Source: Bdellovibrionales bacterium (GTDB taxonomy: Bacteria > Bdellovibrionota > Bdellovibrionia > Bdellovibrionales > CAYMLA01). From it: DNA of 64,000 nucleotides. Where the stretch lies: positions 1,760,001 to 1,824,000 of the forward strand of contig OZ244239.1 in the NCBI GenBank assembly GCA_965217115.1, given 5' to 3'. Position 1 is the first letter of the stretch. The number at the start of each line of letters is the position of its first letter. Shown here one piece after another: positions 1,566 through 64,000 of this stretch. A program made the translations under genes and the position numbers. Under the pieces are notes generated by a model. The model ran no database searches and was not told the origin of the DNA. It was given only the letters and a program-made list of their open reading frames with translations.

Positions 1566-3173
1566 GTGATGGTGAAAGTTTTAGTTTTAGGTATCGTTGT
1601 TTTTCTGCCATTTTTTTATCAGATTGACCTTTATGCACAAAATACATTTGATGGACCGGAGTTTGATTACGAAAATCAAGTTTATCATGTGTATAAAGAA
1701 TTTGGTAGTCGACTGATAGCTGATGGGGAATGGGAAGGCCTAGCCCAGGATCGGAATGTTGAAAGTTACAGTATACAAACCAATGACACTCTTTGGGGTA
1801 TTAGTAAAATTTACTTTGGCAGTGGTTATTATTGGGCTAAAATTTGGGCCTTAAATGGTGAAATTACGAATCCCCATGAAATTGTCCCCAATAAGGAACT
1901 TCGTTTCTATCCAGGGACGTTAGATCAAGAGCCTCATCTTGAATTAGCTAATAAATTAGATCAAGAGCCTCATCTTGAATTAGCTAATAAAAAAGAGAAG
2001 CTCTCTCCGAAGGAGTTGAGAGAATTAATTCCTCCACCAAAGAAAAAAATAACTCCTGTGTTACGGCTTTTACCTCCAAGTTTGCCTTCATCTTTGGTGC
2101 GCAGAAGAATTGGTCAGGCAGATGTTCAGCTATCAATTTCTTTGATAGCGACTCCTGAGAGGCCAGCATTGTCTTATCAGTTGACGGATTATATATCAGA
2201 GAGCACTCAAGGAAGTCTGGGGAAAATCATAGAAACGGAGTTAGGTGGAAAAACGGCGAGACCAGGACAGTATGTTTATATAAAAACAGAAAAAGCTCAA
2301 ATAGGTAAAGAGTATTTGGTGTTGTCTAAAGTCGCTGAACTTTCAGGTTCTAACATGATTGAAGTCCAGGGCAGGGTTCGCCTTTTAGAAGAGGCTAATA
2401 GAGAGGGCGATATTTATCGTGCTTTGGTAACCTATTCTGTGAGTCCTATTTTTGTGGGAAGCTATATAGCTGAAGGAGAAATCCAGGTTTATACGATGCA
2501 ACTTGATGGTTCATTGGTCTCTTCGTCTCAAGGAAAAATTCTCGGTGGTCGCTATGATAATAATAGAAAAATATTTGGGCGAGGTGGAATTGTTTTTATT
2601 GATTTAGGGGCTAAGAGCGGAATTGAGACGGGGACATTGTTACCTATTATTCTTAATCAGAAATCTCGCAACAGCGAGAGTCGAGTTGATCGTGTTATAA
2701 AACGCATAGGGTTATTGAAAGTTTTGAGATTAGGAGAACGTCACTCTACAGCAGTGATTCTTCAGTCGTCAGAGGATATTCGCACAGGGGATCTTGTTGG
2801 TGGGTTTGAGCAGAAGAAGAATCAAGTGGAGGGTGGAAAAACTATTAAGACTGAACAAGATGAGTTATTACTGGATAGCTTGGATGAAGTAGATAGCCAG
2901 AAAAGCGTTTCTGATCAAGAAGAACAGGACGATTTTGGCAGTGATCACATCGAAGAAAAAAAAGAAGAGGTCAAAGAAGAGATTAAAGAAGAGATTAAAG
3001 AAGAATTCAAAGAAGAGATTAAAGAAGAATTCAAAGAAGAGATTAAAGAAGAATTCAAAGAAGAGGATGAAGAAGCCACTGAGGATGATTTTGAAGATAC
3101 CAATGAAGATGATCTTGAAGATGCCAATGAAGATGATCTTGAAGATGCCAATGAAGATGATCTTTTTGAATAA
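1566..3173 (+). CDS. Secreted LysM peptidoglycan-binding protein (TsaP-like) with acidic repeat tail
   Basis: Signal peptide; LysM motif YSIQTNDTLWGISKIYFGSGYYWAKIWALN-ITNPHEI; lies directly upstream of dprA, a common synteny. Confidence 0.8.
   Translation: MMVKVLVLGIVVFLPFFYQIDLYAQNTFDGPEFDYENQVYHVYKEFGSRLIADGEWEGLAQDRNVESYSIQTNDTLWGISKIYFGSGYYWAKIWALNGEITNPHEIVPNKELRFYPGTLDQEPHLELANKLDQEPHLELANKKEKLSPKELRELIPPPKKKITPVLRLLPPSLPSSLVRRRIGQADVQLSISLIATPERPALSYQLTDYISESTQGSLGKIIETELGGKTARPGQYVYIKTEKAQIGKEYLVLSKVAELSGSNMIEVQGRVRLLEEANREGDIYRALVTYSVSPIFVGSYIAEGEIQVYTMQLDGSLVSSSQGKILGGRYDNNRKIFGRGGIVFIDLGAKSGIETGTLLPIILNQKSRNSESRVDRVIKRIGLLKVLRLGERHSTAVILQSSEDIRTGDLVGGFEQKKNQVEGGKTIKTEQDELLLDSLDEVDSQKSVSDQEEQDDFGSDHIEEKKEEVKEEIKEEIKEEFKEEIKEEFKEEIKEEFKEEDEEATEDDFEDTNEDDLEDANEDDLEDANEDDLFE
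1920..1991 (+). repeat. Exact 36-bp tandem duplication (LDQEPHLELANK x2)
   Basis: TTAGATCAAGAGCCTCATCTTGAATTAGCTAATAAA occurs twice in tandem. Confidence 0.95.
2973..3170 (+). repeat. Coding tandem repeats: 12/24-bp (KEEI/KEEF) and 24-bp (EDDLEDAN)
   Basis: Repeated AAAGAAGAGATT/AAAGAAGAATTC units, then GAAGATGATCTTGAAGATGCCAAT units. Confidence 0.9.
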
Positions 3174-34271: not shown

Positions 34272-34322
34272 GGCGGTTCCTCCATTAATCTGTAAACTTT
34301 CAATTTGAGTCATGTTGCATTT
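34272..34322 (+). repeat. Dispersed 50-65-bp repeat, copy a
   Basis: GGCGGTTCCTCCATTAATCTGTAAACTTTCAATTTGAGTCATGTTGCATT; also at 35003 (direct) and 61884-61950 (inverted). Confidence 0.9.
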
Positions 34323-34975
34323 TGAATTTTTTTAGAATAAAAAAGAAAGAGATAGCCAGTATCAAGGAAAAAGCACATCAAACCCAAAAAGTGAAGGAAT
34401 GTCTTATTTGGATAGTGCAAATAAACTCCAATTGAGATGCCTAAAGTTCCTAACATTTTAAACCAAGCGGCAACTTTTGAAAAATCAGTAGGTCTTGAGT
34501 GCTTAAGATAGAGCAGAATATATGTGGAAGAAATTACTAGATTTAGAATATACCCAGTATGGGCCCCACTAGGAACTTCAAGGCCAGATTTTACAAAGGT
34601 AAAATGAAAAAATAACCAAAACAATATTGAAAGGATGTATAAGATATTAAATTGCCATTTCTTGAAAGTGAATGAAAATTGCTTCCATCCATATTTAAAT
34701 ACAGCATAAATAATAATAAGACTCAAAAAAAACCAAATTTTGTAAGCTATTTCAAAAACCGTTCCCATATCAGTAGGGAAAAGAAAACTAAAGATAAACT
34801 CCCAAGCAATATTCCCCGTCGCTGCGAAAACAGGCATTTCGATAAATTTCTTTCTGTAAATATTAACTGCAAAAGATATATAGACTATCACCCAACAGTA
34901 GGCTCCACAGGCAAAAAAGACTAATTCTAGGGGAGGGTATATTTGTAAATTAACAAGATCATTCAAATGGTTCAC
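34310..34975 (-). CDS. PaxB/Pyr4-like integral membrane terpene cyclase homolog
   Basis: About 7 TM helices; W..VY.....N.Y.KK..EMP..A..GNIAWEF.F motif typical of the PaxB/Pyr4 family. Confidence 0.7.
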   Translation of the reverse strand: MNHLNDLVNLQIYPPLELVFFACGAYCWVIVYISFAVNIYRKKFIEMPVFAATGNIAWEFIFSFLFPTDMGTVFEIAYKIWFFLSLIIIYAVFKYGWKQFSFTFKKWQFNILYILSILFWLFFHFTFVKSGLEVPSGAHTGYILNLVISSTYILLYLKHSRPTDFSKVAAWFKMLGTLGISIGVYLHYPNKTFLHFLGLMCFFLDTGYLFLFYSKKIQNAT

Positions 34976-35002: not shown

Positions 35003-35068
35003 GGCGGTTCCCCCATTAGTCTGTAAACTTTCAATTTGAGTCATGTTGCATTAAGCACATAGCATAGA
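35003..35068 (+). repeat. Dispersed 50-65-bp repeat, copy b
   Basis: GGCGGTTCCCCCATTAGTCTGTAAACTTTCAATTTGAGTCATGTTGCATTAAGCACATAGCATAGA. Confidence 0.9.
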
Positions 35069-35133
35069 TTTATCCTTTGATGCAAACTCCATCATCTAGG
35101 TTAAGAAATAAATGCTCATTGAGGCACTCATCT

Positions 35134-52116: not shown

Positions 52117-53814
52117 GTGGCTAAAAAAGTGAAAAAAACTATTCAAAAAAAATCGGTAAGAACAAAGAAAGCTTCATCTCGAGCAGTAAAAAATTCTTTG
52201 GAGAGGAAGTTTATCTTTGTGACGGGAGGAGTTGTATCCTCCATAGGTAAAGGTTTGGCGGCGGCGAGTCTAGCAACATTGCTAGAGGCGCGTGGGGTGA
52301 ATGTCACCATGATGAAATGTGACCCCTATATCAATGTGGACCCAGGGACGATGTCTCCTCTGCAACATGGAGAGGTTTATGTCACTGAGGATGGTGCGGA
52401 AACGGATTTGGATTTAGGTCATTATGAGAGATTTACATCGGCTCATTTGAGTCGAGCCAACAGTGTTAGCGCAGGGCAGGTTTATGAGAGTGTGATAGCT
52501 AAAGAGCGCCGTGGGGATTACTTGGGAGGAACAGTGCAGATAATTCCTCATATAACTAACGAGATTAAACGCTGTATTTGCAAGGCAAGCGAAGGGTTTG
52601 AAGTGATCATCGTGGAGATCGGCGGTACGGTAGGAGATATTGAAGGGTTGCCTTTTCTGGAAGCTATTCGACAGATGAGGGTGGATGTTGGTATTGAGAA
52701 TTCGCTTCTTATTCATGTAACCTATGTTCCCTATATAGCTGCGGCGGGAGAGTTGAAAAGTAAGCCTACGCAACATTCGGTTAAAGAGTTACAAAAAATT
52801 GGGTTAATTCCAGATTTTTTAGTTTGTCGCACAGAAAAAAAGATATCTAAAGATATTCGTAATAAAATAGGTCTTTTTTGTAACGTTAAAGTAGAGAATG
52901 TTATTGAGGCTGTAGATGCGACAACTATTTATGATGTGCCTTTGATGATGCACGATCAAGGTTTAGATATAAAAGTAACAAATAGATTGAACCTTAAAGT
53001 GAATAAACCTTCTTTGGCAGCTTGGAAAAAGATGGTCAATACGATTAAGAGCCCAAAAAATTCTCTGACCATTGGAATCATAGGTAAATATGTGGGGTTA
53101 AAGGAGAGCTATAAATCTCTACATGAGTCTCTTGTCCACGGAAGCATAGCTAATGAGGTAGAGATCAATATTGTGTATATAGATTCTGAAAAAATCAATA
53201 AGTCTAATGTGTCTCGTGCTTTAAAAGGTTTGCATGGAGTTCTTGTTCCAGGGGGATTTGGTGAGCGAGGTATTGAGGGAAAAATGATAGCTATAGGTTA
53301 TGCCCGTGAGAAGGAAATTCCATTCTTTGGAATTTGTCTAGGTATGCAGTTGGCTGCTATTGAGTTTGCTCGCAATGTGTGTGGTTTTAAAAAAGCTAAC
53401 AGTCGTGAGTTTTCTAAAACTCTTAAAGGGGAAAAGAGTTTTGTAATTGATTTTATGGAGGAACAAAAATCAGTTAAAGACAAAGGTGGAACTATGCGCT
53501 TAGGAGCTTATCCTTGTCATATTTCAGGAAAAACTCGCTTGTCCTCTATTTACAAAAACAAGGTGATTCATGAACGACATCGCCATCGTTTTGAGTTTAA
53601 TAATGATTATAAAGATATTTTTGCAAAAAATGGTATGTTAGCTTCAGGAATATGTCGAGAGAGAAATTTGGTGGAAGTCTTAGAGGTCAGTAAACATCCT
53701 TGGTTTGTGGGAGTGCAGTTTCATCCGGAGTTCAAATCTCGACCGACACAGCCACACCCATTATTTACTAGTTTTGTTAAAGCATCTTTAGCCAAGAAGA
53801 GAGGGCGTTTATGA
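52117..53814 (+). CDS. pyrG: CTP synthase
   Basis: FVTGGVVSSIGKG, PYINVDPGTMSP, GICLGMQ, QFHPEF. Confidence 0.98.
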   Translation: MAKKVKKTIQKKSVRTKKASSRAVKNSLERKFIFVTGGVVSSIGKGLAAASLATLLEARGVNVTMMKCDPYINVDPGTMSPLQHGEVYVTEDGAETDLDLGHYERFTSAHLSRANSVSAGQVYESVIAKERRGDYLGGTVQIIPHITNEIKRCICKASEGFEVIIVEIGGTVGDIEGLPFLEAIRQMRVDVGIENSLLIHVTYVPYIAAAGELKSKPTQHSVKELQKIGLIPDFLVCRTEKKISKDIRNKIGLFCNVKVENVIEAVDATTIYDVPLMMHDQGLDIKVTNRLNLKVNKPSLAAWKKMVNTIKSPKNSLTIGIIGKYVGLKESYKSLHESLVHGSIANEVEINIVYIDSEKINKSNVSRALKGLHGVLVPGGFGERGIEGKMIAIGYAREKEIPFFGICLGMQLAAIEFARNVCGFKKANSREFSKTLKGEKSFVIDFMEEQKSVKDKGGTMRLGAYPCHISGKTRLSSIYKNKVIHERHRHRFEFNNDYKDIFAKNGMLASGICRERNLVEVLEVSKHPWFVGVQFHPEFKSRPTQPHPLFTSFVKASLAKKRGRL

Positions 53815-54797
53815 AGAGTGAAAATATAAGGAAAGAGGCCATTCGAGTTTTAAAAATGGAGGCCGAGGGGGTTTTGTCTCTTATTGATCGGATTGATGAA
53901 AGCTTTGAAAAATCTGTTGAGATGATTTTAAATTGTAAAGGTAAGATTGTTGTTACAGGAATGGGAAAGTCAGGTCAAATTGGGCGTAAAATTTCCAGTA
54001 CAATGAGTTCGACAGGAACGTCGTCTGTGTTCATGCATCCAGCCGAGAGTGTACATGGAGATCTTGGTGTTATTAGCAATCAGGATCTAGTGATTGCTAT
54101 TAGCAACAGTGGTGAATCGTTGGAGCTTGATTACGTCGTGAAGTATGTTGTGCGTAAAGGAATTTCCTTGATTGCAATGACAGGTAATCCGGAGAGCACT
54201 TTGGGTCGGTCTAGTGATGTGGTTCTTAATATAGGTGTCGAAAAAGAGGCGTGCTCTTTGGGATTAGCTCCAACAACGAGTTCCACGGCGACATTGGCTA
54301 TGGGTGACGCATTGGCGATGACGGTCTTAAAGGCAAAGGGATTTCAAGAATCAGATTATGCTGAATTTCACCCTGGCGGAAGTTTAGGACGTCGCTTGCT
54401 AACACATGTGCAGGATGTAATGCATAGTAAAAGGGCGTTGCCATTAGTCCCTTTAGGGACACCCATGCGCGAGGTTTTTTCACTAATGACCTCTAAAGAG
54501 GTGAGGGGTGTTGCGGGAGTTGTTGATGCTCAAGGAGACTTGATTGGAATTGTCACTGATGGAGATGTGCGTCGGCTATTAGATAAGAAGGAAAATTCTT
54601 TTGATTGCAAGGTTGAAGAGATAATGGGACGTAATCCTAAAACCATCGATGTTCTTGAGATGGCAGAGAAGGCTTTGTTTATGATGGAGCAGTTTAAAAT
54701 ACTTCTTCTCTTTGTTGTGGACGGTAAGTCGTCGCAGCCAAGAAGTCCTGTGGGGATTTTGCATTTGCATGATTTGATTGATTCCAAAATACGGTGA
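53811..54797 (+). CDS. kdsD: Arabinose-5-phosphate isomerase KdsD (SIS + CBS)
   Basis: GMGKSG, HGDLG, APTTS, HPGGSLG, CBS pair. Confidence 0.95.
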   Translation: MKSENIRKEAIRVLKMEAEGVLSLIDRIDESFEKSVEMILNCKGKIVVTGMGKSGQIGRKISSTMSSTGTSSVFMHPAESVHGDLGVISNQDLVIAISNSGESLELDYVVKYVVRKGISLIAMTGNPESTLGRSSDVVLNIGVEKEACSLGLAPTTSSTATLAMGDALAMTVLKAKGFQESDYAEFHPGGSLGRRLLTHVQDVMHSKRALPLVPLGTPMREVFSLMTSKEVRGVAGVVDAQGDLIGIVTDGDVRRLLDKKENSFDCKVEEIMGRNPKTIDVLEMAEKALFMMEQFKILLLFVVDGKSSQPRSPVGILHLHDLIDSKIR

Positions 54798-54817
54798 TTG
54801 ATTTTGGCAGAGAAGGC

Positions 54818-54934
54818 GCTTTTTTAATGGACCTCCATTCTTTAGTTCAGACATGCGTTTGGCAGCGGCGCTCGCCTAAGGCGAGCATCGCACCAAGCCG
54901 AACTCACTAAAGAATAGAGGTCCATGAAAAAAGC
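54818..54934. repeat. 117-bp palindromic element, copy 1
   Basis: 29-bp arms GCTTTTTTAATGGACCTCCATTCTTTAGT / ACTAAAGAATAGAGGTCCATGAAAAAAGC, inner palindrome GCTCGCCT-A-AGGCGAGC. Confidence 0.92.
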
Positions 54935-54979
54935 TCTTTTTGAAAATCGCATGGGACTGGGGACAGCGGGGGGTAGAGA

Positions 54980-55154
54980 GGGAACAGCGAGGGGGACAGC
55001 GAGGGGAACAGCGAGGGGGACAGCGAGGGGGACAGCGAGGGGGACAGCGAGGGGGACAGCGAGGGGGACAGCGAGGGGGACAGCGAAGGGGACAGTGAAG
55101 GGGACAGTGAAGGGGACAGTGAAGGGAACAGTGAAGGGAACAGCGTGGGAACAG
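54980..55154 (+). repeat. G-rich 12/11-bp VNTR, copy 1 (about 14 units)
   Basis: GGGRACAGYGAR units plus an 11-bp GGGAACAGCGT variant. Confidence 0.95.
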
Positions 55155-55404
55155 AAATAATCCTGATTTTACAGGAAAAAATGTTCTTAATGAATGTAAA
55201 GCCAAGTCTGAAGCCTGTAGTCTTGCAAGCACAACGATAATAGGAAGTGGTCTTATTTCTTGTGCCATTAAGAGCACTGCAAGAGTTGAGTAAATCTAAA
55301 ACTCTAGGTAAATAATCAAGCATTCCCCTTTGTAGAACGAAAGCTAGGGATTAACCGCTCAACGCTCCACAACTGGGATAGTTTTTAGCGTGACTCTAAA
55401 AGAA

Positions 55405-55698
55405 TTAGAGACATTCTTCTGGGGTCATCAATTTGTGCGTAAGAAGGAGGAATGATTTTTCCCTTGCATCTTCTTCTGACCTAAAACATCTAGCAAATGC
55501 CTGGCCATCATTAAGAGTAAGGGAAGCATAAACTATGCACGAAGGATCATTAGGTATACTTATATATTTTATCTTACTCTTGCAGATACTCCATTTATCA
55601 ACATCTTCTGATTCACAGCCTCCATTAGATTCAGCTAGGGTGGCTTCTCCAAATGAGAACATTAATCCGAGTACAAGCAGTGATAATGTCTTTTTCAT
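55405..55698 (-). CDS. Small secreted Cys-containing protein (cargo A1)
   Basis: AGGAG SD, signal peptide MKKTLSLLVLGLMFSFGEATLA, 5 Cys; near-identical paralog at 56538. Confidence 0.8.
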   Translation of the reverse strand: MKKTLSLLVLGLMFSFGEATLAESNGGCESEDVDKWSICKSKIKYISIPNDPSCIVYASLTLNDGQAFARCFRSEEDAREKSFLLLTHKLMTPEECL

Positions 55699-55930
55699 TT
55701 TTTTTCTCCTAATAATTGAGTATCGTTCTGTTTCCTTGGGAGATTAATTCTCCTAAATCTGACTGATACCGTTAATTTCTAAGGTTCTAGAGTACATATT
55801 CTATGCCATGGAGAAAATAGCTCAGACATCAATCTATCGGTAGTTGAGCTCTTTTGAGGTGTCTAGCCCCTAGCGTAGATTGTCAGTTTGGAGTTTTAAA
55901 AGAGGTTTTTCCTGGGTTCTTTCCCTTTTT
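55699..55930 (-). promoter_or_regulatory. Conserved ~230-bp leader/promoter block, copy 1 (also 57827-58058, 61357-61588)
   Basis: Near-identical block upstream of A1, B1 and B2. Contains the RBS, a GGAGA-N6-TCTCC hairpin and sigma54-like TGGCATAGAATATGT (55794-55808). Confidence 0.75.
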
Positions 55931-55998
55931 TGTGGATGGGAAATCGTCGCAGCCAAGAGATCTTGTGGGGATTTTGCATTTGTATGATTTGATTGATT
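55931..55998 (+). pseudogene. Duplicated kdsD 3' tail (20-bp deletion at end)
   Basis: VDGKSSQPRDLVGILHLYDLID versus native VDGKSSQPRSPVGILHLHDLID. Confidence 0.85.
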
Positions 55999-56012
55999 TT
56001 GGCAGAGAAGGC

Positions 56013-56129
56013 GCTTTTTTAATGGACCTCCATTCTTTAGTTCAGACATGCGTTTGGCAGCGGTGCTCGCCTAAGGCGAGCATCGCACCAAGCCGAACTC
56101 ACTAAAGAATGGAGGTCCATGAAAAAAGC
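56013..56129. repeat. 117-bp palindromic element, copy 2
   Basis: Near-identical to 54818-54934. Confidence 0.92.
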
Positions 56130-56175
56130 TCTTTTTGAAAATCGCATGGGACTGGGGACAGCGGGGGGTAGAGAG

Positions 56176-56287
56176 GGAACAGCGTGGGAACAGCGAGGGG
56201 GACAGCGAAGGGGACAGCGTGGGGACAGCGAAGGGAACAGCGAAGGGGACAGTGAAGGGGACAGTGAAGGGAACAGCGTGGGAACAG
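56176..56287 (+). repeat. G-rich VNTR, copy 2 (about 9 units)
   Basis: Same unit, with three 11-bp variants. Confidence 0.92.
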
Positions 56288-56537
56288 AAATAGTCCTGAT
56301 TTTACAGAAAAAAATGTTCTTAATGAATGTAAAGCCAAGTCTGAAGCTTGTAGTCTTGCAAGCACAACGATAATAGGAAGTGGTCTTATTTCTTGTGCCG
56401 TTAAGAGCACTGCAAGAGATGAGTAAATCTAAAACTCTAGGTAAATAATCAAGCATTCCCCTTTGTAGAACGAAAGCTAGGGATTAACCGCTCAACGCTC
56501 CACAACTGGGATAGTTTTTAGCGTGACTCTAAAAGAA

Positions 56538-56828
56538 TTAGAGACATTCTTCTGGGGTCATCAATTTGTGCGTAAGGAGGAATGAATTTTCCCTTGCATC
56601 TTCTTCTGACCTAAAACATTTAGCAAATGTCTGGCCATCATTAAGAGTAAGGGAAGCATAAACTATGCACGAAGGATCATTAGGTATACTTATATATTTT
56701 ATCTTACTCTTACAGATACTCCATTTATCAACATCTTCTGATTCACAGCCTCCATTAGATTCAGCTAGGGTGGCTTCTCCAAATGAGAACATTAATCCGA
56801 GTACAAGCAGTGATAATGTCTTTTTCAT
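56538..56828 (-). CDS. Small secreted Cys-containing protein (cargo A2)
   Basis: Paralog of 55405-55698 with 3 amino acid changes and 1 codon deletion. Confidence 0.8.
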   Translation of the reverse strand: MKKTLSLLVLGLMFSFGEATLAESNGGCESEDVDKWSICKSKIKYISIPNDPSCIVYASLTLNDGQTFAKCFRSEEDARENSFLLTHKLMTPEECL

Positions 56829-56916
56829 TTTTTTTCTCCTAATAATTGAGTATCGTTCTGTTTCATAAGTAGGCTATTTAATAATGAACCAATACTCATG
56901 TTCCAATAGATGAAGA

Positions 56917-56947
56917 AGGCAGGTTTTAGATAGTCTAAAACCTGCCT
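56917..56947 (-). terminator. Terminator of cargo B1 (duplicated at 60274-60304)
   Basis: Perfect 14-bp stem AGGCAGGTTTTAGA-TAG-TCTAAAACCTGCCT. Confidence 0.75.
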
Positions 56948-56956
56948 ATGATTATT

Positions 56957-57826
56957 TTATTTTTTCCCTACTCTTGCAGCAGTCTTTTTGGGGTCTATCT
57001 TAGTTTGAGAGTTAGTTTTCTGGTTTACTACATTACGCACAACTCTTCCTTCTCCCTTAGCTAGATTAACTATCTTTTTTATAAGAGAAAGATCTCTAAA
57101 ACGTCGTTTAGCGAGGTGGTCCCGCCCTTCTTCATATAGTTCATTTATAATATTAGCATCAGAGTCACGAAATCTAGTCGATATACTCAGAAATCTCTCT
57201 ATTTGTGCCTCTGTTGGCTTTCCATCCACAAATAATTTGAAATACTCTTTCAATATATGCTCCCATACAGCATCTACTTCAACACGCTTTACACGATCGA
57301 TCTCAGTTAGAGCAGGCCAATTTTTTGGTGTTGTTTTAAACTCCTTCTCAGAATTCGTATTCACCATCACTTCTTGCGCTTCTGCTGCTAATCTATGCAT
57401 AATAAGAAACCTAAGTTTACGAAAGTTATGCGATATATCCAGAAATCTTCCCTTTTGTTCTATGTTTGGCGTTGTCATCAAAAATGATCTGAGATTCTCT
57501 TTCAATATATGCTCCCACCCAGCATCTACTTCAGCACGTCTTACACGATTGATCTTAGTTAGAGCGAGCCACTTTTCTGGTGTTGTTCCCAACTTGCTAA
57601 AGACTTCTTGTGCAAATTCTGACATTGCAGAAGTATAAAGCGCGCTCCCGTGGATATACTTAGCTCTTTCACTTCCGAAGAACGAAGAAAATACTGTTTT
57701 AGCCTCTCTCTCATTTGTTACTAGAACCTTATCTTGACCCTCGCCATATGGTATAGATACAGCTAGGGTGGATTCTCCAAATGAAAACATTAATCCGAGT
57801 ACAAGCAGTGATAATGTCTTTTTCAT
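56957..57826 (-). CDS. Secreted helical-repeat protein (cargo B1)
   Basis: Same signal peptide as A; internal repeat TTPxxWxALTxIxRVxRxEVDAxWEHILKE x2. Confidence 0.8.
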   Translation of the reverse strand: MKKTLSLLVLGLMFSFGESTLAVSIPYGEGQDKVLVTNEREAKTVFSSFFGSERAKYIHGSALYTSAMSEFAQEVFSKLGTTPEKWLALTKINRVRRAEVDAGWEHILKENLRSFLMTTPNIEQKGRFLDISHNFRKLRFLIMHRLAAEAQEVMVNTNSEKEFKTTPKNWPALTEIDRVKRVEVDAVWEHILKEYFKLFVDGKPTEAQIERFLSISTRFRDSDANIINELYEEGRDHLAKRRFRDLSLIKKIVNLAKGEGRVVRNVVNQKTNSQTKIDPKKTAARVGKK

Positions 57827-58058
57827 TTTTTTTCTCCTAATAATTGAGTATTGATCTATTTCCTTGGGAGATTAATTCTCCTAAATCTGACTAATACCGT
57901 TAATTTCTAAGGTTCTAGAGTACATATTCTATGCCATGGAGAAAACAGCTCAGACATCAATCTATCGGTAGTTGAGCTCTTTTGAGGTGTCTAGCCTCTA
58001 GCGTAAATTGTCAGTTTGGAGTTTTAAAAGAGGTTTTTCCTGGGTTCTTTTCCTTTTT

Positions 58059-58140
58059 TGTGGATGGGAAGTCGTCGCAGCCAAGAGATCTTGTGGGGAT
58101 TTTGCATTTGTATGATTTGATTGATTCCAAAATACGGTGA
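58059..58140 (+). pseudogene. Duplicated kdsD 3' tail including stop
   Basis: ...GATTCCAAAATACGGTGA, same as the native end at 54797. Confidence 0.88.
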
Positions 58141-58160
58141 TTGATTTTGGCAGAGAAGGC

Positions 58161-58277
58161 GCTTTTTTAATGGACCTCCATTCTTTAGTTCAGACATGCG
58201 TTTGGCAGCGATGCTCGCCTAAGGCGAGCATCGCACCAAGCCGAACTCACTAAAGAATAGAGGTCCATGAAAAAAGC
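58161..58277. repeat. 117-bp palindromic element, copy 3
   Basis: Inner palindrome is perfect here: GCGATGCTCGCCT-A-AGGCGAGCATCGC. Confidence 0.92.
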
Positions 58278-58322
58278 TCTTTTTGAAAATCGCATGGGAC
58301 TGGGGACAACGGGGGGTAGAGA

Positions 58323-58491
58323 GGGAACAGCGTAGGAACAGCGAAGGGGACAGTGAAGGGAACAGTGAAGGGAACAGCGTGGGAACAGCGAGGGGGACAG
58401 CGAAGGGGACAGCGAAGGGAACAGTGAAGGGAACAGTGAAGGGGACAGCGAAGGGAACAGTGAAGGGAACAGTGAAGGGGACAGCGAAGGG
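58323..58491 (+). repeat. G-rich VNTR, copy 3 (about 14 units)
   Basis: Same unit, different order of variants. Confidence 0.92.
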
Positions 58492-58657
58492 TGATTGATT
58501 TTGGTAGAGAAGGTACTTGTTACTTTAGTTACAAATATAGTGATCTCGAAGAGTATTGTTGAAAATGAGTTGACAAGTAATCGAGGTAGTTAGGAAAAGG
58601 GAACCCGCACATTCTCTATTGAACAAGTTCTGAACAAAGCCTCTAAACTACCGTATT

Positions 58658-60202
58658 TTAAGTTTCATTGAGAATATTTAATAGGATCTTTTTTTCAAAG
58701 CCGAATATATAAAATCTATGAAGCATTTTAAGGTAATCTTTTGATTGTTCTTTCTCCAAGGCCATTACCTTAAAAGAGTTAAACACATCTAAGAAATTCT
58801 TAGAGGCATTTATATCATCAAAAATATTTTTTAATATTGGGTATTGAGAAATTTTATCTACGTTGTTGAATTCATTTAAACCTGTTTTAGAAACTGCTGT
58901 TGATAAATATTCATACTCATTTTTATAAAATTTTACAATTTCATCTAATGTGTGTAAAAAAGATTGTTCAAATAAAATCAATTCTTGACGTAGTTCTTCC
59001 GTAGCTACTGTATTTCCTGACTTCTCTCCTAGCTCAATCTTTGCTTTAGTCGATTGAATTATGGATTCTAAGATAAACAGTGTCTCAAAATGTATAGACA
59101 TTATTTTATTTTCTGATTTTGAATTTTTTGGATAATGAAGCATTGGTGGCATAGGTTGATTTTTTTTAATAACAGTACTTGCTATTCTAATAACCTGTTT
59201 TCTTACCTTAAACCCGAAACCCTTAGTGTCGTGTCCAATTCTCCAAAACGCATGCCTAGTTGATTTAATTCCCCTTGTAATTTGATTCTTATATTCGTGA
59301 GGTATAAATAGAGATAAAACTCCACCAGAAACTCCAAACATCATACCTGCAATAGTGCCAGCTCCAGGAAACAATGTCGTTCCAACAACTCCAGCTGTAA
59401 CCATAGAAGTCACTAAAGTAACAAACTCACCAGTGGCAATTCTCTTTCTCCAAGCATTATACAGCCAAAGATTTCTTAATTCATGATTATGCCAAAGAAT
59501 CTTCATCATATTATTAAACACGACCTTAAGAACTCTCCAGTCATCTGCGGAATCAGCTGTGTGTAAAAAAATGCCATATTTAAGTGATCTTCCCAGCAAT
59601 GTCCCTAGCCCTTGAGCTTTCTGATAATCTGATTCATCTTCAATAAGCTCTACTGCCTCAGTATATAATTGCCCACCTAACTCCCAGCCAATAAAAGTGA
59701 CAAAAGTACTAATTCCTGCTTGTAAAAATTTTTTAAGCATTCCATTGGATGTTCCATTTTGTATCAGTGAATTGATAATTTGCAGTGGTTTTGCTGATAT
59801 TCCAGAGACCACTCCAGCTCCGATCAAACTACTCCATATTTCACCAGAATTGACAACATGTCCTGCCGCTTCTTTAATATGAGAAGCAAGAAGGTCCTTA
59901 TCAATTGTTTCAAGTGTTAAATTTGATTGTTCGACATGTTGTCTCACTAAATCAACACCAGTTAATATCATAATAAGCAATATGGCTTGGCCTTGATGGG
60001 CTAACACATTATTTGTATATCTGTTGCTCGCTCTTGTAGATTTACGAGCGGCCTTCTTAGTGAACCTTGCTGCTCTCCAACCACCATAATTCAGAGTAAT
60101 TTTTTCAAGAAAACTTTGACCCTTAGTTGGTGTGTGAATTTGAGCTTGGGACTGATGAGACAGTAAGGTAATAAAAATAAGTATCTTTATAATTATGTTC
60201 AT
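58658..60202 (-). CDS. Secreted/membrane hypothetical protein with glycine-zipper hairpin (cargo C)
   Basis: GAGGGG SD, signal peptide, several hydrophobic helices, TAGVVGTTLFPGAGTIAGMMFGVSGGVLS. Confidence 0.8.
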   Translation of the reverse strand: MNIIIKILIFITLLSHQSQAQIHTPTKGQSFLEKITLNYGGWRAARFTKKAARKSTRASNRYTNNVLAHQGQAILLIMILTGVDLVRQHVEQSNLTLETIDKDLLASHIKEAAGHVVNSGEIWSSLIGAGVVSGISAKPLQIINSLIQNGTSNGMLKKFLQAGISTFVTFIGWELGGQLYTEAVELIEDESDYQKAQGLGTLLGRSLKYGIFLHTADSADDWRVLKVVFNNMMKILWHNHELRNLWLYNAWRKRIATGEFVTLVTSMVTAGVVGTTLFPGAGTIAGMMFGVSGGVLSLFIPHEYKNQITRGIKSTRHAFWRIGHDTKGFGFKVRKQVIRIASTVIKKNQPMPPMLHYPKNSKSENKIMSIHFETLFILESIIQSTKAKIELGEKSGNTVATEELRQELILFEQSFLHTLDEIVKFYKNEYEYLSTAVSKTGLNEFNNVDKISQYPILKNIFDDINASKNFLDVFNSFKVMALEKEQSKDYLKMLHRFYIFGFEKKILLNILNET

Positions 60203-60313
60203 TTTTTATCCCCTCAATTTCATAAGTAGGCTATTTAATAATGAACCAATACTCATGTTCCAATAGATGAAGAAGGCAGGTTTTAGATAGTCTAAAACCT
60301 GCCTATGATTATT

Positions 60314-61356
60314 TTATTTTTTCCCTACTCTTGCAGCAGTCTTTTTGGGGTCTATCTTAGTTTGAGAGTTAGTTTTCTGGTTTACTACATTACGCACAAC
60401 TCTTCCTTCTCCCTTAGCTAGATTAACTATCTTTTTTATAAGAGAAAGATCTCTAAAACGTCGTTTAGCGAGGTGTTTCCGCCCTTTTTCATATAGCTCA
60501 TCTATAATATTAGCGTCAGAGTCACGAAATCTAATCGACATATTCAGAAATTTCTCTACTTGTGCCTCTGTTGGCTTTCCATCCACAAATAATTTGAGAT
60601 TCTCTTTCAATATATGCTCCCATCCAGCATCTACTTCAACACGCTTTACACGATCGATCTCAGTTAGAGCAGGCCACTTTTTTGGTGTTGTTCCAAACTT
60701 ATCAAAGACTTTTTTTGCGAATTTTGACATTTCAGAAGAATAAAGCATGCTCCCGTGGATATCCTTAGCTAACTCACCTCCGAAGAACGAAGAAAACACT
60801 CTTTTAGCTTGCGCTATTCTCATTGTGCTGCAATACCAAACTCCTTCTCAGAATAATTCTCAGATTTCGTATTCACCATCACTTCTCCAAGTGATTTTTG
60901 CCCTTCTGCTACTAATCTATTCATAGTAAGAAAATTAGATTCACGAAAGTTATACGGCGATGTATTCAGAAATCTTCTCTTTTGTTCCATGTTTGGCCTT
61001 GTTCATCAAAAATGATCTGAGATTCTCTTTCAATATATGCTCCCACCCAGCATCTACTTCAGCACGCTTACACGATCGATCTCAGTTAGAGCGAGCCACT
61101 TTTCTGGTGTTGTTCCCAACTTACTAAAGACTTCTTGTGCAAATTCTGACATTGCAGAAGTATAAAGCGCGCTCCCGTGGATATACTTAGCTCTGTTACC
61201 TCCGAAGAACGAAGAAAATACGTTTTTAGCCTCTGCCTGATTTGTTACTAGAGCCTTGCCATATGGTATAGCAACTACACCTGGGGTGGGTTCTCCAAAT
61301 AAAGCTCCACCATAAAAGACTAATCCGAGTACAAGCAGTGATAATGTTTTTTTCAT
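60314..61356 (-). pseudogene. Frameshifted paralog of cargo B (B2)
   Basis: Two ORF fragments homologous to B1; single-base indels near 61067, 61002 and 60826. Confidence 0.75.
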
Positions 61357-61588
61357 TTTTTTTCTCCTAATAATTGGGTATCGATCTATTTCCTTGGGAG
61401 ATTAATTCTCCTAAATCTGACTAATACCGTTAATTTCTAAGGTTCTAGAGTACATATTCTATGCCATGGAGAAAATAGCTCAGACATCAATCTATCGGTA
61501 GTTGAGCTCTTTTGAGGTGTCTAGCCCCTAGCGTAGATTGTCAGTTTGGAGTTTTAAAAGAGGTTTTTCCTGGGTTCTTTTCCTTTTT

Positions 61589-61670
61589 TGTGGATGGGAA
61601 ATCGTCGCAGCCAAGAGATCCTGTGGGGATTTTGCATTTGTATGATTTGATTGATTCCAAAATATGGTGA
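61589..61670 (+). pseudogene. Duplicated kdsD 3' tail
   Basis: Third extra copy of the last ~27 codons of kdsD. Confidence 0.88.
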
Positions 61671-61690
61671 TTGATTTTGGCAGAGAAGGC

Positions 61691-61807
61691 GCTTTTTTAA
61701 TGAACCTCCATTCTTTAGTTCAGACATGCGTTTGGCAGCGGTGCTCGCCTAAGGCGAGCATCGCACCAAGCCGAACTCACTAAAGAATAAAGGTCCATGA
61801 AAAAAGC
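61691..61807. repeat. 117-bp palindromic element, copy 4
   Basis: Near-identical to the other copies; the downstream VNTR is missing. Confidence 0.9.
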
Positions 61808-61883
61808 TCTTTTTGAAAATCGCATGGGACTGGGGACAGCGGGGGGAGGGGGTAGGCGGGGGAACCGCCCAGCAAAGGACAAC

Positions 61884-61950
61884 TCTATGCTATGTGCTTA
61901 AAGGCAACATGACTCAAATTGAAAGTTTACAGACTAATGTGGGAACCGCC
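61884..61950 (-). repeat. Dispersed 50-65-bp repeat, copy c (inverted)
   Basis: Reverse complement closely matches 35003-35068; an extra GGAACCGCC end lies at 61861. Confidence 0.9.
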
Positions 61951-62012
61951 ACCCTATGGTAACTCCTTTGTGGTTTTGTTGTTTTGGTGGGGTGACTATT
62001 TTGCTAAGGATT

Positions 62013-62495
62013 TTACTTGCAAATACCTCGTCTTCTAAGGTTTACAATTTTGTTTTTAAGGATTTTAGTTGCATCAGCTATCTCCTTAACGTATTCCCTC
62101 TGCACAAAAGGAATATCTCCAAATCCGATCTGGGCAATAGGTATTGGTGAAGAATCTCGCACCTGTTCTGTAACTGTTTCTCGGCCTCGTCCGAAGTGAC
62201 GTGTTTTACGATGATAAATACCAAGCTTATAGTCCCAATAGTCCAGAAAGAGCATCTTCTCTTCCGCGGTCATGACCAACAAAAACGGATGACTTATGAG
62301 AAGAATAGGGTCAATCTTCTCAGGCAACCCGCGAGTCCATGAATAGTCAATAAAGCAATCGACAGCAAGTTGAGTCCCAGGCTGCTTACCAGCAAGGCTT
62401 CTTTTTGTGTCAGCATTTAAAGACTGAATCCTTGTACCCATTCCCGAACAAGCAACAAAACTTAAGCTCAACAAGCACAGCATAATTATTTTCAT
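62013..62495 (-). CDS. Hypothetical lipoprotein (cargo D)
   Basis: AGGAG SD, lipoprotein signal MKIIMLCLLSLSFVA-CSG. Confidence 0.8.
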   Translation of the reverse strand: MKIIMLCLLSLSFVACSGMGTRIQSLNADTKRSLAGKQPGTQLAVDCFIDYSWTRGLPEKIDPILLISHPFLLVMTAEEKMLFLDYWDYKLGIYHRKTRHFGRGRETVTEQVRDSSPIPIAQIGFGDIPFVQREYVKEIADATKILKNKIVNLRRRGICK

Positions 62496-62555
62496 AAACA
62501 AATCTCCTATTTATTTTTATTATCAATAAGTGTATCGGACTATTCTCGCTAAAGT

Positions 62556-62599
62556 TAAGCTAGACTAGACTAAGCTAAACTAAACTAAACTAAACTAAA
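62556..62599 (+). repeat. (CTAAA)n pentanucleotide microsatellite upstream of D
   Basis: CTAGA/CTAAG variants followed by CTAAA x5. Confidence 0.9.
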
Positions 62600-62634
62600 G
62601 GCGATTAAGGAGTCAGCTATTAGATAAATAGCTA

Positions 62635-62970
62635 TTAATCTATACACTCCACAAAGACCCTTTCGCCAGGTCTTATTATAACACTCTCGCCTTTATCTAA
62701 ATTAACAATACGGGTTGGCTTGCAAACAGGTAAGTGAGGATTTATATTACAAGGATCTACGATAGCTAGAACAGAGTTTCTTTTTCCGCAAGTTACTAAA
62801 GTTTCTTTTTCAATGCCTTGGAAAAAAAATGAGGGTTGTGTTAAAATAAATTTATCCTGGAAAGACGACGCGAGTTCCCTTTTATTAACCGTTTTAGATG
62901 TTGTTTTTTGCCTCACTCCAGAGCAGGCAACAAAACTTAAACTTAGCAGAGACAGGATAATTATTTTCAT
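62635..62970 (-). CDS. Hypothetical lipoprotein (cargo E)
   Basis: AAAGGA SD, lipoprotein signal MKIIILSLLSLSFVA-CSG, 4 further Cys. Confidence 0.8.
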   Translation of the reverse strand: MKIIILSLLSLSFVACSGVRQKTTSKTVNKRELASSFQDKFILTQPSFFFQGIEKETLVTCGKRNSVLAIVDPCNINPHLPVCKPTRIVNLDKGESVIIRPGERVFVECID

Positions 62971-63027
62971 AGTAAAATCCTTTCGTTTATATTAGTTAAT
63001 TGTAACAAACCTATCGGATTATTTAAG

Positions 63028-63067
63028 CTAAACTAAACTAAACTAAACTAAACTAAACTAAACTAAG
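63028..63067 (+). repeat. (CTAAA)7 microsatellite upstream of E
   Basis: Seven perfect CTAAA units followed by CTAAG. Confidence 0.92.
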
Positions 63068-63187
63068 ATTGACTCTGATAATCTTGTTTAGCTGTTTCCC
63101 AGAAAGGGTTTGGAAGTAGTGTGAAGCATTTGGAAGCCTGTGAAGCTATAAAGGCCAATGAAAATAGTGGGTTAGTGTTCTGGCGGG

Positions 63188-63275
63188 CATTGCACCAAGT
63201 CGAACTTACTAAGGTCCATTAAAAAAGCTCTTTTTGAAAATGGCATGGGTTGGGAACAGAGGAGCAGTGGGGGTC
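63188..63275 (+). repeat. Degenerate right half of the palindromic element plus start of the G-rich tract
   Basis: CATTGCACCAAGTCGAACTTACTAAGGTCCATTAAAAAAGCTCTTTTTGAAAATGGCATGGG matches 54886-54955 with substitutions and a deletion. Confidence 0.8.
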
Positions 63276-63438
63276 CAGTTAGGAAATGAGAAAATGTGGT
63301 GGAGGAGGGGGGGCTGGCAAATATAGCCATAAGTCCTAAGTTAGAGGACTATGCTTGCAGGTATTGTAAAGTTTCTCGACAATGTACTTTAGAGTAAACA
63401 GCGTCTGATTTTTTTTACAGCTTAGAATGAGAGAGAAA

Positions 63439-64000
63439 ATGAAATTATTTTACAGTGCATTTAGATCAGTCCCTATTTTTTGCCTGTTGTGTGCCGTGAA
63501 TTCCTATGGAGCGGTGATTGAGTTTCCTGATTATGAGTTGGCCCCTGAGTCAGTGCTTCCTCTGTTTGATAAAGCAGTGAGTGTCCGTGATCGGCGTATT
63601 GTGAGTAGGGGTCGAATTGAGATGGGTATCTTTTCTGGTTTTTCATTGCTTGAGTCATTCTATAGTCAATACAGTGTTGGTGTTTCGTCGAGCTATCATT
63701 TTAATGAAATCAATGCTCTTCACGCTTCTTTTTTTTACTGGATACCAGGTTTAACTGAGCAAGCTCACTCGTTAAGAGAGAGGCATAATATTTTTCTAGA
63801 AAAAGCCCCGTCTCCAGAGAGTTACTTGACCTTAGAGTATCAGCACTCATCTTTTTATGGAAAAATGAGTATTTCTAAAAACTACGTCATAAACACTCAT
63901 ATCTATGGCCTACTTGGCGGGGGAGTGCAGCTTACTGGGGAGGCAACTTATCCAACGTTTAATTTTGGTTTGGGACAAAAGCTCTATTTCTCAAAATTAT
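63439..64000 (+). CDS. Outer-membrane beta-barrel domain protein (Bdellovibrio/Myxococcales type), partial
   Basis: Hand translation: MKLFYS...IEFPDYELAPESVLPLFD..VSVRDRRI...YHFNE...FYGKMSISK...FGLGQKLYF; open to the window end. Confidence 0.8.
   Translation, partial: MKLFYSAFRSVPIFCLLCAVNSYGAVIEFPDYELAPESVLPLFDKAVSVRDRRIVSRGRIEMGIFSGFSLLESFYSQYSVGVSSSYHFNEINALHASFFYWIPGLTEQAHSLRERHNIFLEKAPSPESYLTLEYQHSSFYGKMSISKNYVINTHIYGLLGGGVQLTGEATYPTFNFGLGQKLYFSKL

Follow-up and report, generated by a model that had tools for sequence, protein, structure and literature searches.

A lineage-specific tandem array of genes for apparently exported proteins behind kdsD in a Bdellovibrionales genome, and its probable origin by segmental amplification

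A 64,000-nucleotide stretch of the genome of a Bdellovibrionales bacterium (GenBank assembly GCA_965217115.1, contig OZ244239.1, positions 1,760,001 to 1,824,000; hereafter, the window) carries a tandem array of genes directly behind kdsD, the gene for arabinose-5-phosphate isomerase. An earlier note on this DNA had described a repeat-scaffolded array of minus-strand, apparently exported genes that starts from the native end of kdsD, and our analysis supports that description. We consider it probable, at roughly 0.6, that the locus arose by segmental amplification through homologous recombination, with concerted evolution, reuse of a 5′ region and signal peptide and subsequent decay, rather than through a dedicated cassette machine. 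The locus is most likely a well-marked new instance of a tandemly amplified paralogue array under concerted evolution, and not a new kind of system.

Anatomy of the repeat scaffold

The repeated block, which we refer to as H, consists of the kdsD tail, the stop codon, a palindrome of ~125 nt and a further ~25 nt, and is present in four copies that start at 54703, 55921, 58053 and 61583. Copies II–IV are each preceded by a 5′ region of 222–226 bp, and H is followed by a G-rich minisatellite with a 12-bp unit, such that the repeat reaches ~310 bp to the left of the palindrome (tail plus 5′ region) and extends into the minisatellite on the right. Repeat finding recovered a 280-nt family with four copies (starting at 54710, 55905, 58053 and 61583), a 300-nt family with three copies of 96–97% identity (at 55647, 57775 and 61305) and a 39-nt family with five copies, the fifth of which lies at 63211–63249 (95%). 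Self-blastn of the repeats gave identities of 80–98% over 90–1029 nt (E values of 3e-16 to 0), a similarity far beyond chance. Together, the two methods confirm the scaffold positions originally given (~54.7, 55.9, 58.1 and 61.6 kb), and the scaffold has no occurrence within window positions 1–54,000.

The H copies delimit four segments (S1–S4; Table 1) of 1.2–3.5 kb each, and the repeats are direct and head-to-tail. S1–S3 have the minisatellite at one end and the 5′ region at the other in common, whereas S4 is unrelated to them. The claim that cargo differs from one scaffold to the next was overstated: only A (twice), B (twice, once broken) and C (once) are found between scaffolds. These differences are explained by duplication, insertion and decay.

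A single founding joint

The gene kdsD is intact and its C-terminus can be aligned with those of 11 relatives, which bears out the proposal that the first unit uses the native gene end. The native tail comprises the last 95 bp of the gene (54703–54797), with repeat homology beginning at 54703, and the repeated tail spans 76–95 bp. Relative to copies II–IV, the native tail is 8–12% different (7–9 mismatches per 76–88 nt), whereas the copied tails are 96.6–98.6% alike among themselves; copy II, for example, is 88% identical to the native tail and 98.6% identical to copies III and IV. The adjoining block from the stop codon through the palindrome and the post-palindrome stretch is 98.1–98.8% identical across all four units, and unit I, which matches the others at 88–92% up to the kdsD stop codon, matches them at 98–99% from exactly that point on. 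Because the tails differ by 8–12% next to a block that is nearly uniform, the junction must be old and the rest must have been copied or converted since.

The boundary between the 5′ region and the tail falls on the same base in units II, III and IV. A joint that is identical in all three copies implies one founding event that was copied thereafter, and direct head-to-tail repeats with one common novel junction are what is present here. The tail copies carry substitutions (proline to leucine in II and III, arginine to tryptophan in IV) at two residues that are invariant in 11 of 11 relatives and are therefore unconstrained relics. Short plus-strand open reading frames (ORFs) at 55854–56105, 57982–58140 and 61512–61670 begin in the 5′ region and run in the kdsD frame to the copied stop; these are probably meaningless relics of the duplication.

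The junction in related genomes

We scanned species-representative genomes for KdsD, found a relative encoded in 189 of 265 candidate stretches and kept the best 80 loci. The closest 11 among these (56–61% identity) all come from metagenome-assembled genomes of Bdellovibrionota, and in every one of them pyrG and kdsD are followed on the same strand by a homologue (35–40% identity) of the outer-membrane beta-barrel gene that ends our window. Measured from the kdsD stop codon to the start of the barrel alignment, the gap is 123–233 bp in six of these loci, 564 bp in one (with a kdsC-like gene between), 863–1031 bp in two without a clear ORF and 1054–1084 bp in two that hold a small lipoprotein gene and kdsC. 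The corresponding interval in the window is 8629 bp. Searches of the 80 loci with A1, B1, B2, C, D and E (tblastn) and with the entire kdsD–barrel interval (blastn) gave no match in any of them. With a gap of 8.6 kb here and no cargo in relatives, we conclude that the array is lineage-specific: it is an insertion or expansion peculiar to this lineage, at an otherwise conserved junction that shows mild plasticity.

The relatives show further variation of their own. In 3 of the 11 loci (L001–L003), kdsD and the barrel gene are separated by a gene for a kdsC-like HAD phosphatase; two of these loci (L001 and L002) also have a gene for a lipoprotein of ~150 amino acids in the gap; no kdsC was found by tblastn anywhere in the window. 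The short spacers of six relatives (L007, L009, L017, L031, L047 and L052) share a conserved stretch, roughly CTTTTCAA...TTA...CCACAaTGA, some 60–100 nt before the start of the barrel gene, and this stretch may represent a promoter or regulatory element for the gene.

Cargo genes

None of the cargo proteins A, B, C, D and E belongs to a Pfam, NCBIfam or PADLOC family above threshold. The only hit at all, of TRCF to the 169-amino-acid ORF of B2, scored 18 bits against a cut-off of 25 and was rejected. Export signals had been reported for the minus-strand cargo, and we find them supported for A, B, C, D and E as judged by eye and with a hydropathy window. A codon model based on 33 housekeeping ORFs from the window gives every cargo ORF an advantage of at least 0.6 bits per codon in its own frame; A1, for instance, scores 0.012 in frame compared with −0.63 and −1.05 off frame. 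The ratio of non-synonymous to synonymous change (pN/pS) between A1 and A2 is 0.40, on 5 differences.

A and B share not only the 5′ region but also the first 22–24 codons, which correspond to the signal peptide up to about the predicted cleavage site. A1 and A2 do not differ within their first 60 nt; in that stretch both match B1 at 96.7%, and the identity of B2 to the three other genes is 89–90%. BLASTP similarity between A and B is confined to residues 1–32. In S2, a direct repeat of 109 bp stands on either side of the body of B1 with its hairpin and spacer; this repeat combines 36 nt from the 5′ region with the sequence that encodes the signal peptide. The block formed by the 3′ half of B, the hairpin and the spacer has the same end point in both S2 and S3 (56861 and 60218), after which A2 follows in one and C in the other.

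A1 and A2, like B1 and B2, are paralogue pairs, and B2 is frameshifted, a situation that fits duplication and decay. B2 had been counted as a cargo gene, but it is a pseudogene: a 100-amino-acid N-terminal ORF with a signal peptide (61054–61356) is frameshifted after about 96 codons, stops follow, and a 169-amino-acid C-terminal ORF occupies 60314–60823.

A, B and D are orphans. Among 1.84 billion representative proteins, the sole genuine relative of A1 is A2; its two other matches, to a protein with a sevenfold internal repeat and to a polyubiquitin-like protein, are noise inflated by repeats. Among 5.8 billion proteins, the sole relative of B1 is B2, and D matches only itself. By contrast with these, C has 16 unnamed relatives of similar length (33–45% identity), which share a Gly-rich hydrophobic helix pair at residues ~255–300 with an invariant F-P-G-A-G-T. 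The AlphaFold model of C is all-helical (pLDDT of 66.6, pTM of 0.61) and has no Foldseek match at E ≤ 0.001 (best E value of 0.19, TM score ≤0.2); a match to the AhlC pore-forming toxin component (E value of 1.3) was counted as no evidence. When PDB sequences were searched with a profile of C, no match had an E value below 0.034, and a protein atlas was uninformative, with a best score of 0.79 for C and no usable match for B1.

D and E had been listed as scaffolded cargo. Both lie beyond the last scaffold, lack the shared 5′ region and have an upstream region of their own that is related between the two. Their common parts are a (GTTTA)n tract on the coding strand, the hexamer CCGATA, a ribosome-binding site and a lipoprotein-like N-terminus.

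Table 1 Features of the kdsD–barrel interval, in window coordinates (TRF, Tandem Repeats Finder; ΔG in kcal/mol)
Feature	Position	Strand	Basis and remarks
kdsD (arabinose-5-phosphate isomerase), intact	53811–54797	+	Pfam SIS 1e-28 and CBS 3e-15
Palindrome I	54813–54939		Inverted repeat; 98.1–98.8% identical to copies II–IV
Minisatellite I	54959–55149		TRF; 12-bp unit, 16.2 copies
A1, 97 aa, Cys-containing, N-terminal signal-peptide-like segment	55405–55698	−	ORF
Shared 5′ region, copy II, 222 bp	55699–55920	−	Ends AGGAGA-N8-ATG; CCGATA 142 nt before ATG
kdsD tail, copy II	55921–55996	+	Alignment; 20-nt deletion takes out the stop codon
Palindrome II	56008–56134		Inverted repeat, identity
Minisatellite II	56154–56287		TRF, 8.9 copies; unit listing, about 9–11 units
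A2, 96 aa	56538–56828	−	98.6% DNA identity to A1; of the shared 5′ region, just 36 nt remain
Perfect 14-bp hairpin after B1, terminator-like	56917–56947		ΔG −22, z −6.4; same hairpin at 60274–60304
B1, 289 aa, internal repeat	56957–57826	−	First 22–24 residues as in A, rest unrelated
Shared 5′ region, copy III, 226 bp	57827–58052	−	Alignment, identity
kdsD tail, copy III	58053–58140	+	Alignment, identity
Palindrome III	58156–58282		Inverted repeat; fold ΔG −74.2, z −9.5
Minisatellite III	58322–58491		TRF; 14.3 units
Extra 24-nt copy of the kdsD stop region, 1 mismatch	58493–58516	+	Read from sequence; directly after minisatellite III
C, 514 aa, own N-terminal hydrophobic segment	58658–60202	−	Sole cargo with relatives elsewhere
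B2 locus, broken B-type gene	60314–61356	−	Three-frame translation, blastn to B1
Shared 5′ region, copy IV, 226 bp	61357–61582	−	Alignment, identity
kdsD tail, copy IV	61583–61670	+	Alignment; final R to W
Palindrome IV	61686–61812		Inverted repeat; two non-compensated changes; then minisatellite stub to ~61868
Short dispersed repeat copy, unrelated	61870–61950	−	blastn 92–93%; other copies 34272–34322 and 35003–35082
D, 160–162 aa, lipoprotein-like N-terminus	62013–62501	−	ORF, hydropathy; no scaffold 5′ region before it
D upstream region	62502–62634	−	(TAAAC)8.8 at 62556–62599; TTAAC-N15-CCGATA (TRF, motif scan)
E, 111 aa, lipoprotein-like N-terminus in common with D	62635–62970	−	ORF, comparison with D; mature part unrelated to D
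E upstream region, homologous to that of D	62971–63100	−	(TAAAC)8.6 at 63024–63066; TTTAG-N15-CCGATA
Decayed right half of palindrome and start of G-rich tract	63182–63262		80% identical to the others
Outer-membrane beta-barrel domain protein, runs off window	63427–63999	+	NCBIfam TIGR04565, 70.1 bits against a cut-off of 60
S1	Between H copies I and II		Minisatellite, A1, 5′ region
S2	Between H copies II and III		Minisatellite, A2, hairpin, B1, 5′ region
S3	Between H copies III and IV		Minisatellite, 24-nt kdsD-stop fragment, C, hairpin, broken B2, 5′ region
S4	After H copy IV		81-bp dispersed-repeat copy, D, E, two (TAAAC)n tracts

Origin of the array

The anatomy can be accounted for by a short series of events. 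Small minus-strand genes for exported proteins would have arrived behind the long terminator palindrome of kdsD, and one illegitimate event would then have fused the far end of the cargo 5′ region to kdsD, 95 bp short of the end of that gene. The resulting unit (kdsD tail, palindrome, G-rich minisatellite, cargo and 5′ region) may have been amplified through recombination between copies, which unequal crossing-over or gene conversion would have held alike since. Subsequent remodelling would have set an unrelated mature protein (B) in frame behind the existing 5′ region and signal peptide, placed C behind a copy of B, broken one B copy, removed 20 nt from one tail and shortened one minisatellite. 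The edge copy, which lies inside a selected gene, kdsD, would be expected to escape homogenization, as is ordinary for tandem repeats subject to RecA-type recombination.

Signs of concerted evolution are seen in the 5′ regions, the three copies of which are 96.8–98.2% identical, and in the A genes and A 3′ regions, which are 96.6–98.6% alike. Tandem amplification by homologous recombination is described as an established process in bacteria (PMC12892994), and the suggestion in the earlier note that homologous recombination drives the array is plausible. As in known segmental amplifications, we find direct repeats of 1.2–3.5 kb, one novel joint, a truncated copy of the flanking gene and homogenization relative to an older joint. 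The locus differs from them in its long palindromic terminator, its quadruplex-type minisatellite, the variable gene content of its units and an additional copy of tail and palindrome.

This last feature is one of several that weigh against an origin by amplification alone. There are n + 1 copies of the tail and palindrome (four full and one half) for n 5′ regions (three); because plain tandem duplication predicts equal numbers of both ends, an extra deletion or the integration of a circle within the repeat must be assumed. An (H–S)n–H pattern arises naturally from a circle that carries H and crosses over within H, whether by homologous or by site-specific recombination, although duplication followed by a deletion that starts in the last minisatellite can also produce it. 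S4, with D and E, is unrelated to S1–S3, yet it is also bracketed by the repeat, and at least five further non-homologous joints are present (56864/5, 60217/8, 58491/2, ~61868/9 and 63181/2). B lacks purifying selection (pN/pS of 0.9–2.06, on small counts and with one partner a pseudogene). The codon scores of A1, A2 and E (0.012–0.047) are below the housekeeping minimum of 0.067, and some of the ‘cargo’ may therefore not consist of functional genes. Finally, the shared 5′ region has no promoter that we could recognize, in that it contains no sigma-70-like site and only the −10 half of a FliA-type motif.

The main rival, which we regard as unlikely, is that small integrative elements, now decayed, accumulated one behind another at the 3′ end of kdsD, in the manner of cis-mobilizable elements (CIMEs). 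Each of S1–S4 would be the remnant of an element that integrated site-specifically and brought its own copy of the kdsD end, and the integrase would have been lost or would act in trans. CIMEs, as well as integrative and mobilizable elements (IMEs), are described as accreting in tandem at the 3′ end of a target gene (PMC5704250), and the locus resembles such accretions in its (repeat–segment)n–repeat layout, with four full copies and one half copy, carrying the end of a conserved gene as a direct repeat, bracketing four successive segments, and with no integrase left. The identity jump at the kdsD stop codon is as expected for a crossover core, and the unrelatedness of S4 to S1–S3 also speaks for this reading.

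Against accretion, the segments are far smaller than in such elements, at merely 1.2–3.5 kb, and S1–S3 share both ends beyond the putative att site, which makes them mutual paralogues rather than independent arrivals. Composition is native, with a GC content of 39.4% in the array and 39.2% in the rest of the window and with native codon usage, and neither the scaffold nor C has similarity to any of 72,556 plasmid or 50,697 phage records. A tail and a left arm, which this model predicts for the rightmost repeat, are missing there. We screened for mobility genes the 40 ORFs of at least 150 amino acids in 1–49 kb (NCBIfam, with Pfam for the 8 that had no hit) and the ORFs of the locus (Pfam, NCBIfam and PADLOC). 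No integrase, transposase, reverse transcriptase or Cas gene was found among the screened ORFs, to which extent the statement that the window has none of these holds; nor did we detect a relaxase or any other mobility family, whole or fragmentary, in these ORFs or in the 8.6 kb.

Slightly less probable still is a static fossil, that is, a single old tandem duplication followed only by decay, in which recombination has ended. The broken B2, the 20-nt deletion in tail II, the stub of minisatellite IV, the changes in palindrome IV and the half palindrome at 63.2 kb all fit such a history, and tandem duplication followed by decay, which the earlier note had named as the scenario that would count against its own interpretation, fits most of our observations. 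The array is not simply static, however. Its palindromes, A gene with 3′ region and 5′ regions are homogenized to 97–99% although the tails are 8–12% off the native sequence, and homogeneity beside diverged tails requires later copying or conversion. The minisatellites also differ in copy number (16.2, 8.9 and 14.3 in units I–III).

A more speculative reading, to which we give low credence, is that the kdsD palindrome and the quadruplex-type minisatellite form a self-renewing landing pad for circles that carry the pad themselves, and a nursery in which orphan sequences are fitted to a 5′ region and a signal peptide. Integration by a trans-acting recombinase or by breakage at non-B DNA would give (pad–segment)n–pad, and the products might be exported, possibly attack-phase, proteins of the predator, such that the locus would be integron-like in function but built from different parts.

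An assembly artefact, in which one repeat was mis-assembled into several copies, is very improbable: tandem repeats and minisatellites are error-prone in assemblies, but the copies differ by 1–12% in a structured way and have differing indels, differing cargo and unique joints, and the array lies inside a contig of 2,170,531 bp. Only the minisatellite copy numbers are at real risk from assembly.

Sites of the attC type have the core motifs GTTRRRY and RYYYAAC and a range of lengths within which ~125 nt falls. An integron, or a cluster of attC sites without an integron integrase (CALIN; properties used for comparison from 10.1101/2022.09.11.507474), was suggested by same-orientation ORFs punctuated by imperfect palindromes of attC-like length with no integrase nearby, but it deserves next to no weight, because none of the four palindromes has either motif inside it or within 25 bp on either strand, conservation extends well past the palindrome on both sides to include the kdsD fragment with its fixed joint, the units bring their own 5′ regions and so are not promoterless in layout, no integrase or attI is present and the palindrome is itself the native end of kdsD. 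Since the repeat spans tail, 5′ region and minisatellite with the same joint each time, it looks like a copied segment and not like the product of site-specific exchange at the palindrome, and the integron analogy drawn earlier is not supported, given the missing attC core, the repeat boundaries that lie off the palindrome and the absence of a recombinase gene among the screened ORFs.

Relation to surface-protein families, and implications

A close parallel for the shared signal peptide may be sought in families such as the vsp cluster of Mycoplasma bovis, which is reported to contain 13 vsp genes with signal peptides more than 99% alike (PMC9630594). As in vsp-like families, neighbouring genes share a 5′ region and signal peptide and have unrelated mature parts (A and B; D and E), and simple-sequence repeats are present at the locus. 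In contrast to those families, there are 2–4 genes per family here, A and B are not lipoproteins, and we saw no site-specific invertase or recombinase in the window. A literature search on tandem duplications of secreted paralogues in Bdellovibrio gave nothing relevant among the matches listed.

If amplification is the correct reading, the locus would be a well-resolved natural example of a conserved operon junction turned into a private gene-family locus, with its founding joint marked by a gene fragment and with a 5′ region and signal peptide that can be reused on unrelated, orphan mature proteins; research on how genes are born, and on the rapidly evolving secretomes of bacterial predators, could then draw on it. 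Were it true that the array swaps units site-specifically or recurs with other cargo, it would represent a new type of platform for cassettes. In practical terms, the 5′ region and signal peptide that the units share are candidate expression and secretion parts for Bdellovibrionota.

Hairpins and minisatellites

The palindrome has arms of 34 nt that are 88–91% complementary and folds as a hairpin of ~55 bp (ΔG of −67 to −74 kcal/mol, z of −7.9 to −9.5), matched by 0 of 200 shuffled sequences. For palindrome I the values are −67.4 kcal/mol on the plus strand and −68.8 kcal/mol on the minus strand (z of about −7.9), and its stem is followed by TTTTT on the plus strand, a terminator-like native end of kdsD. 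Few positions vary among the copies and, as read from the alignment, none of the changes is compensatory. The palindrome has no copy in window positions 1–54,000.

The minisatellite varies in copy number among units I–III, and unit IV retains only a stub. It contains 13–18 G-runs spaced by 7–9 nt; in minisatellite I there are 18 runs of at least three, and the tract is G-rich on the plus strand (G 48%, C 14%) and C-rich on the cargo strand. Read on the cargo strand, it forms a C-rich, G-poor tract of 130–190 nt (C 42–48%, G 12–15%), which is the composition of a Rho loading site. A coding role was rejected: ORFs run across the minisatellite without frame preference, and the plus-strand ORF is stopped in unit III.

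Read along the minus strand, each unit has the layout of a transcription unit: a hairpin comes first, then the 5′ region with its ribosome-binding site, the shared signal peptide and the cargo, and the C-rich tract leads to the next hairpin. We infer that the hairpins act as terminators or insulators, in which case they would block cargo transcripts from running antisense into kdsD.

Long palindromes and G-run tracts cause DNA breakage. The palindrome with its ~55-bp stem beside a G-run tract is a plausible candidate for a fragile site, to judge from the layout, and the half palindrome at 63.2 kb breaks at the apex. This piece had been noted as a decayed scaffold. A scaffold relic does exist there, but it comprises only the right palindrome half from the apex and the next ~40 nt, and its left flank is not tail-like (74 of 500 shuffled sequences equal its score). 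The extra 24-nt copy of the kdsD stop region means that palindrome III and minisatellite III are flanked by a direct repeat, in unit III only; it could be a relic of an older kdsD–C junction or of an insertion event.

Expression signals

The region upstream of A and B had been called a leader or promoter. It is better described as a 5′ region that is conserved and has a good ribosome-binding site; none of the three copies has a sigma-70-like site, and the whole scan for such sites gave 23 where 20.6 are expected by chance. The region has no stable overall fold (z of −0.16, tested on copy III). A match to the Rfam family freshwater-2 was rejected as below threshold (about 28 bits against a gathering score of 49.9); it rests mostly on the ribosome-binding site and includes many non-canonical pairs.

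In Bdellovibrio bacteriovorus, the FliA (sigma-28) attack-phase consensus TTAAG-N16-CCGATA is reported for 92 of 140 attack-phase promoters (PMC3627812). The 5′ region of A and B has CCGATA only, with 1 of 5 matches in the −35 half. D and E (Table 1) each have 4 of 5 matches in the −35 half, with a spacer that is one short of N16. Of the 18 CCGATA sites in the window, 5 fall in cargo upstream regions, all on the cargo strand. These motif matches offer a lead, and only a lead, towards possible expression of the cargo in the attack phase.

The (TAAAC)n tracts lie 60–100 nt upstream of D and E and adjoin (D) or overlap (E) the −35-like half. Their layout is that of a simple-sequence contingency, or phase-variable, promoter. 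No comparable non-coding tandem repeat was found in window positions 1–54,000.

Other features of the window

The window is a core chromosomal stretch rich in housekeeping genes (NCBIfam), among them comEC, dprA, lptF, kdsA, rodA, mrdA, mreC, glyS, ppdK and smc, as well as hisC, cmk, rpsA, nusB, nrdR, rsmB and folE2. It contains no tRNA gene, and engB, kdsB, pyrG and kdsD, on the plus strand, are the last genes before the array.

A short dispersed repeat of 51–81 nt occurs in copies that are 92–93% identical and have no stable fold (z of −0.6 to −1.3). Its third copy sits exactly where minisatellite IV breaks off, flanked there by a 10-nt direct repeat. It is possibly an element of this genome of the kind known as miniature inverted-repeat transposable elements or repetitive extragenic palindromes. 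The two other copies, in direct orientation, flank a minus-strand gene for a Pyr4-like transmembrane terpene cyclase (34310–34975; Pfam PF25129, 2.6e-17). Elsewhere, a plus-strand gene for a LysM-domain protein of 535 amino acids (1566–3173) carries in-frame tandem repeats of 12, 24 and 36 bp near its 3′ end (1920–1991 and 2961–3164).

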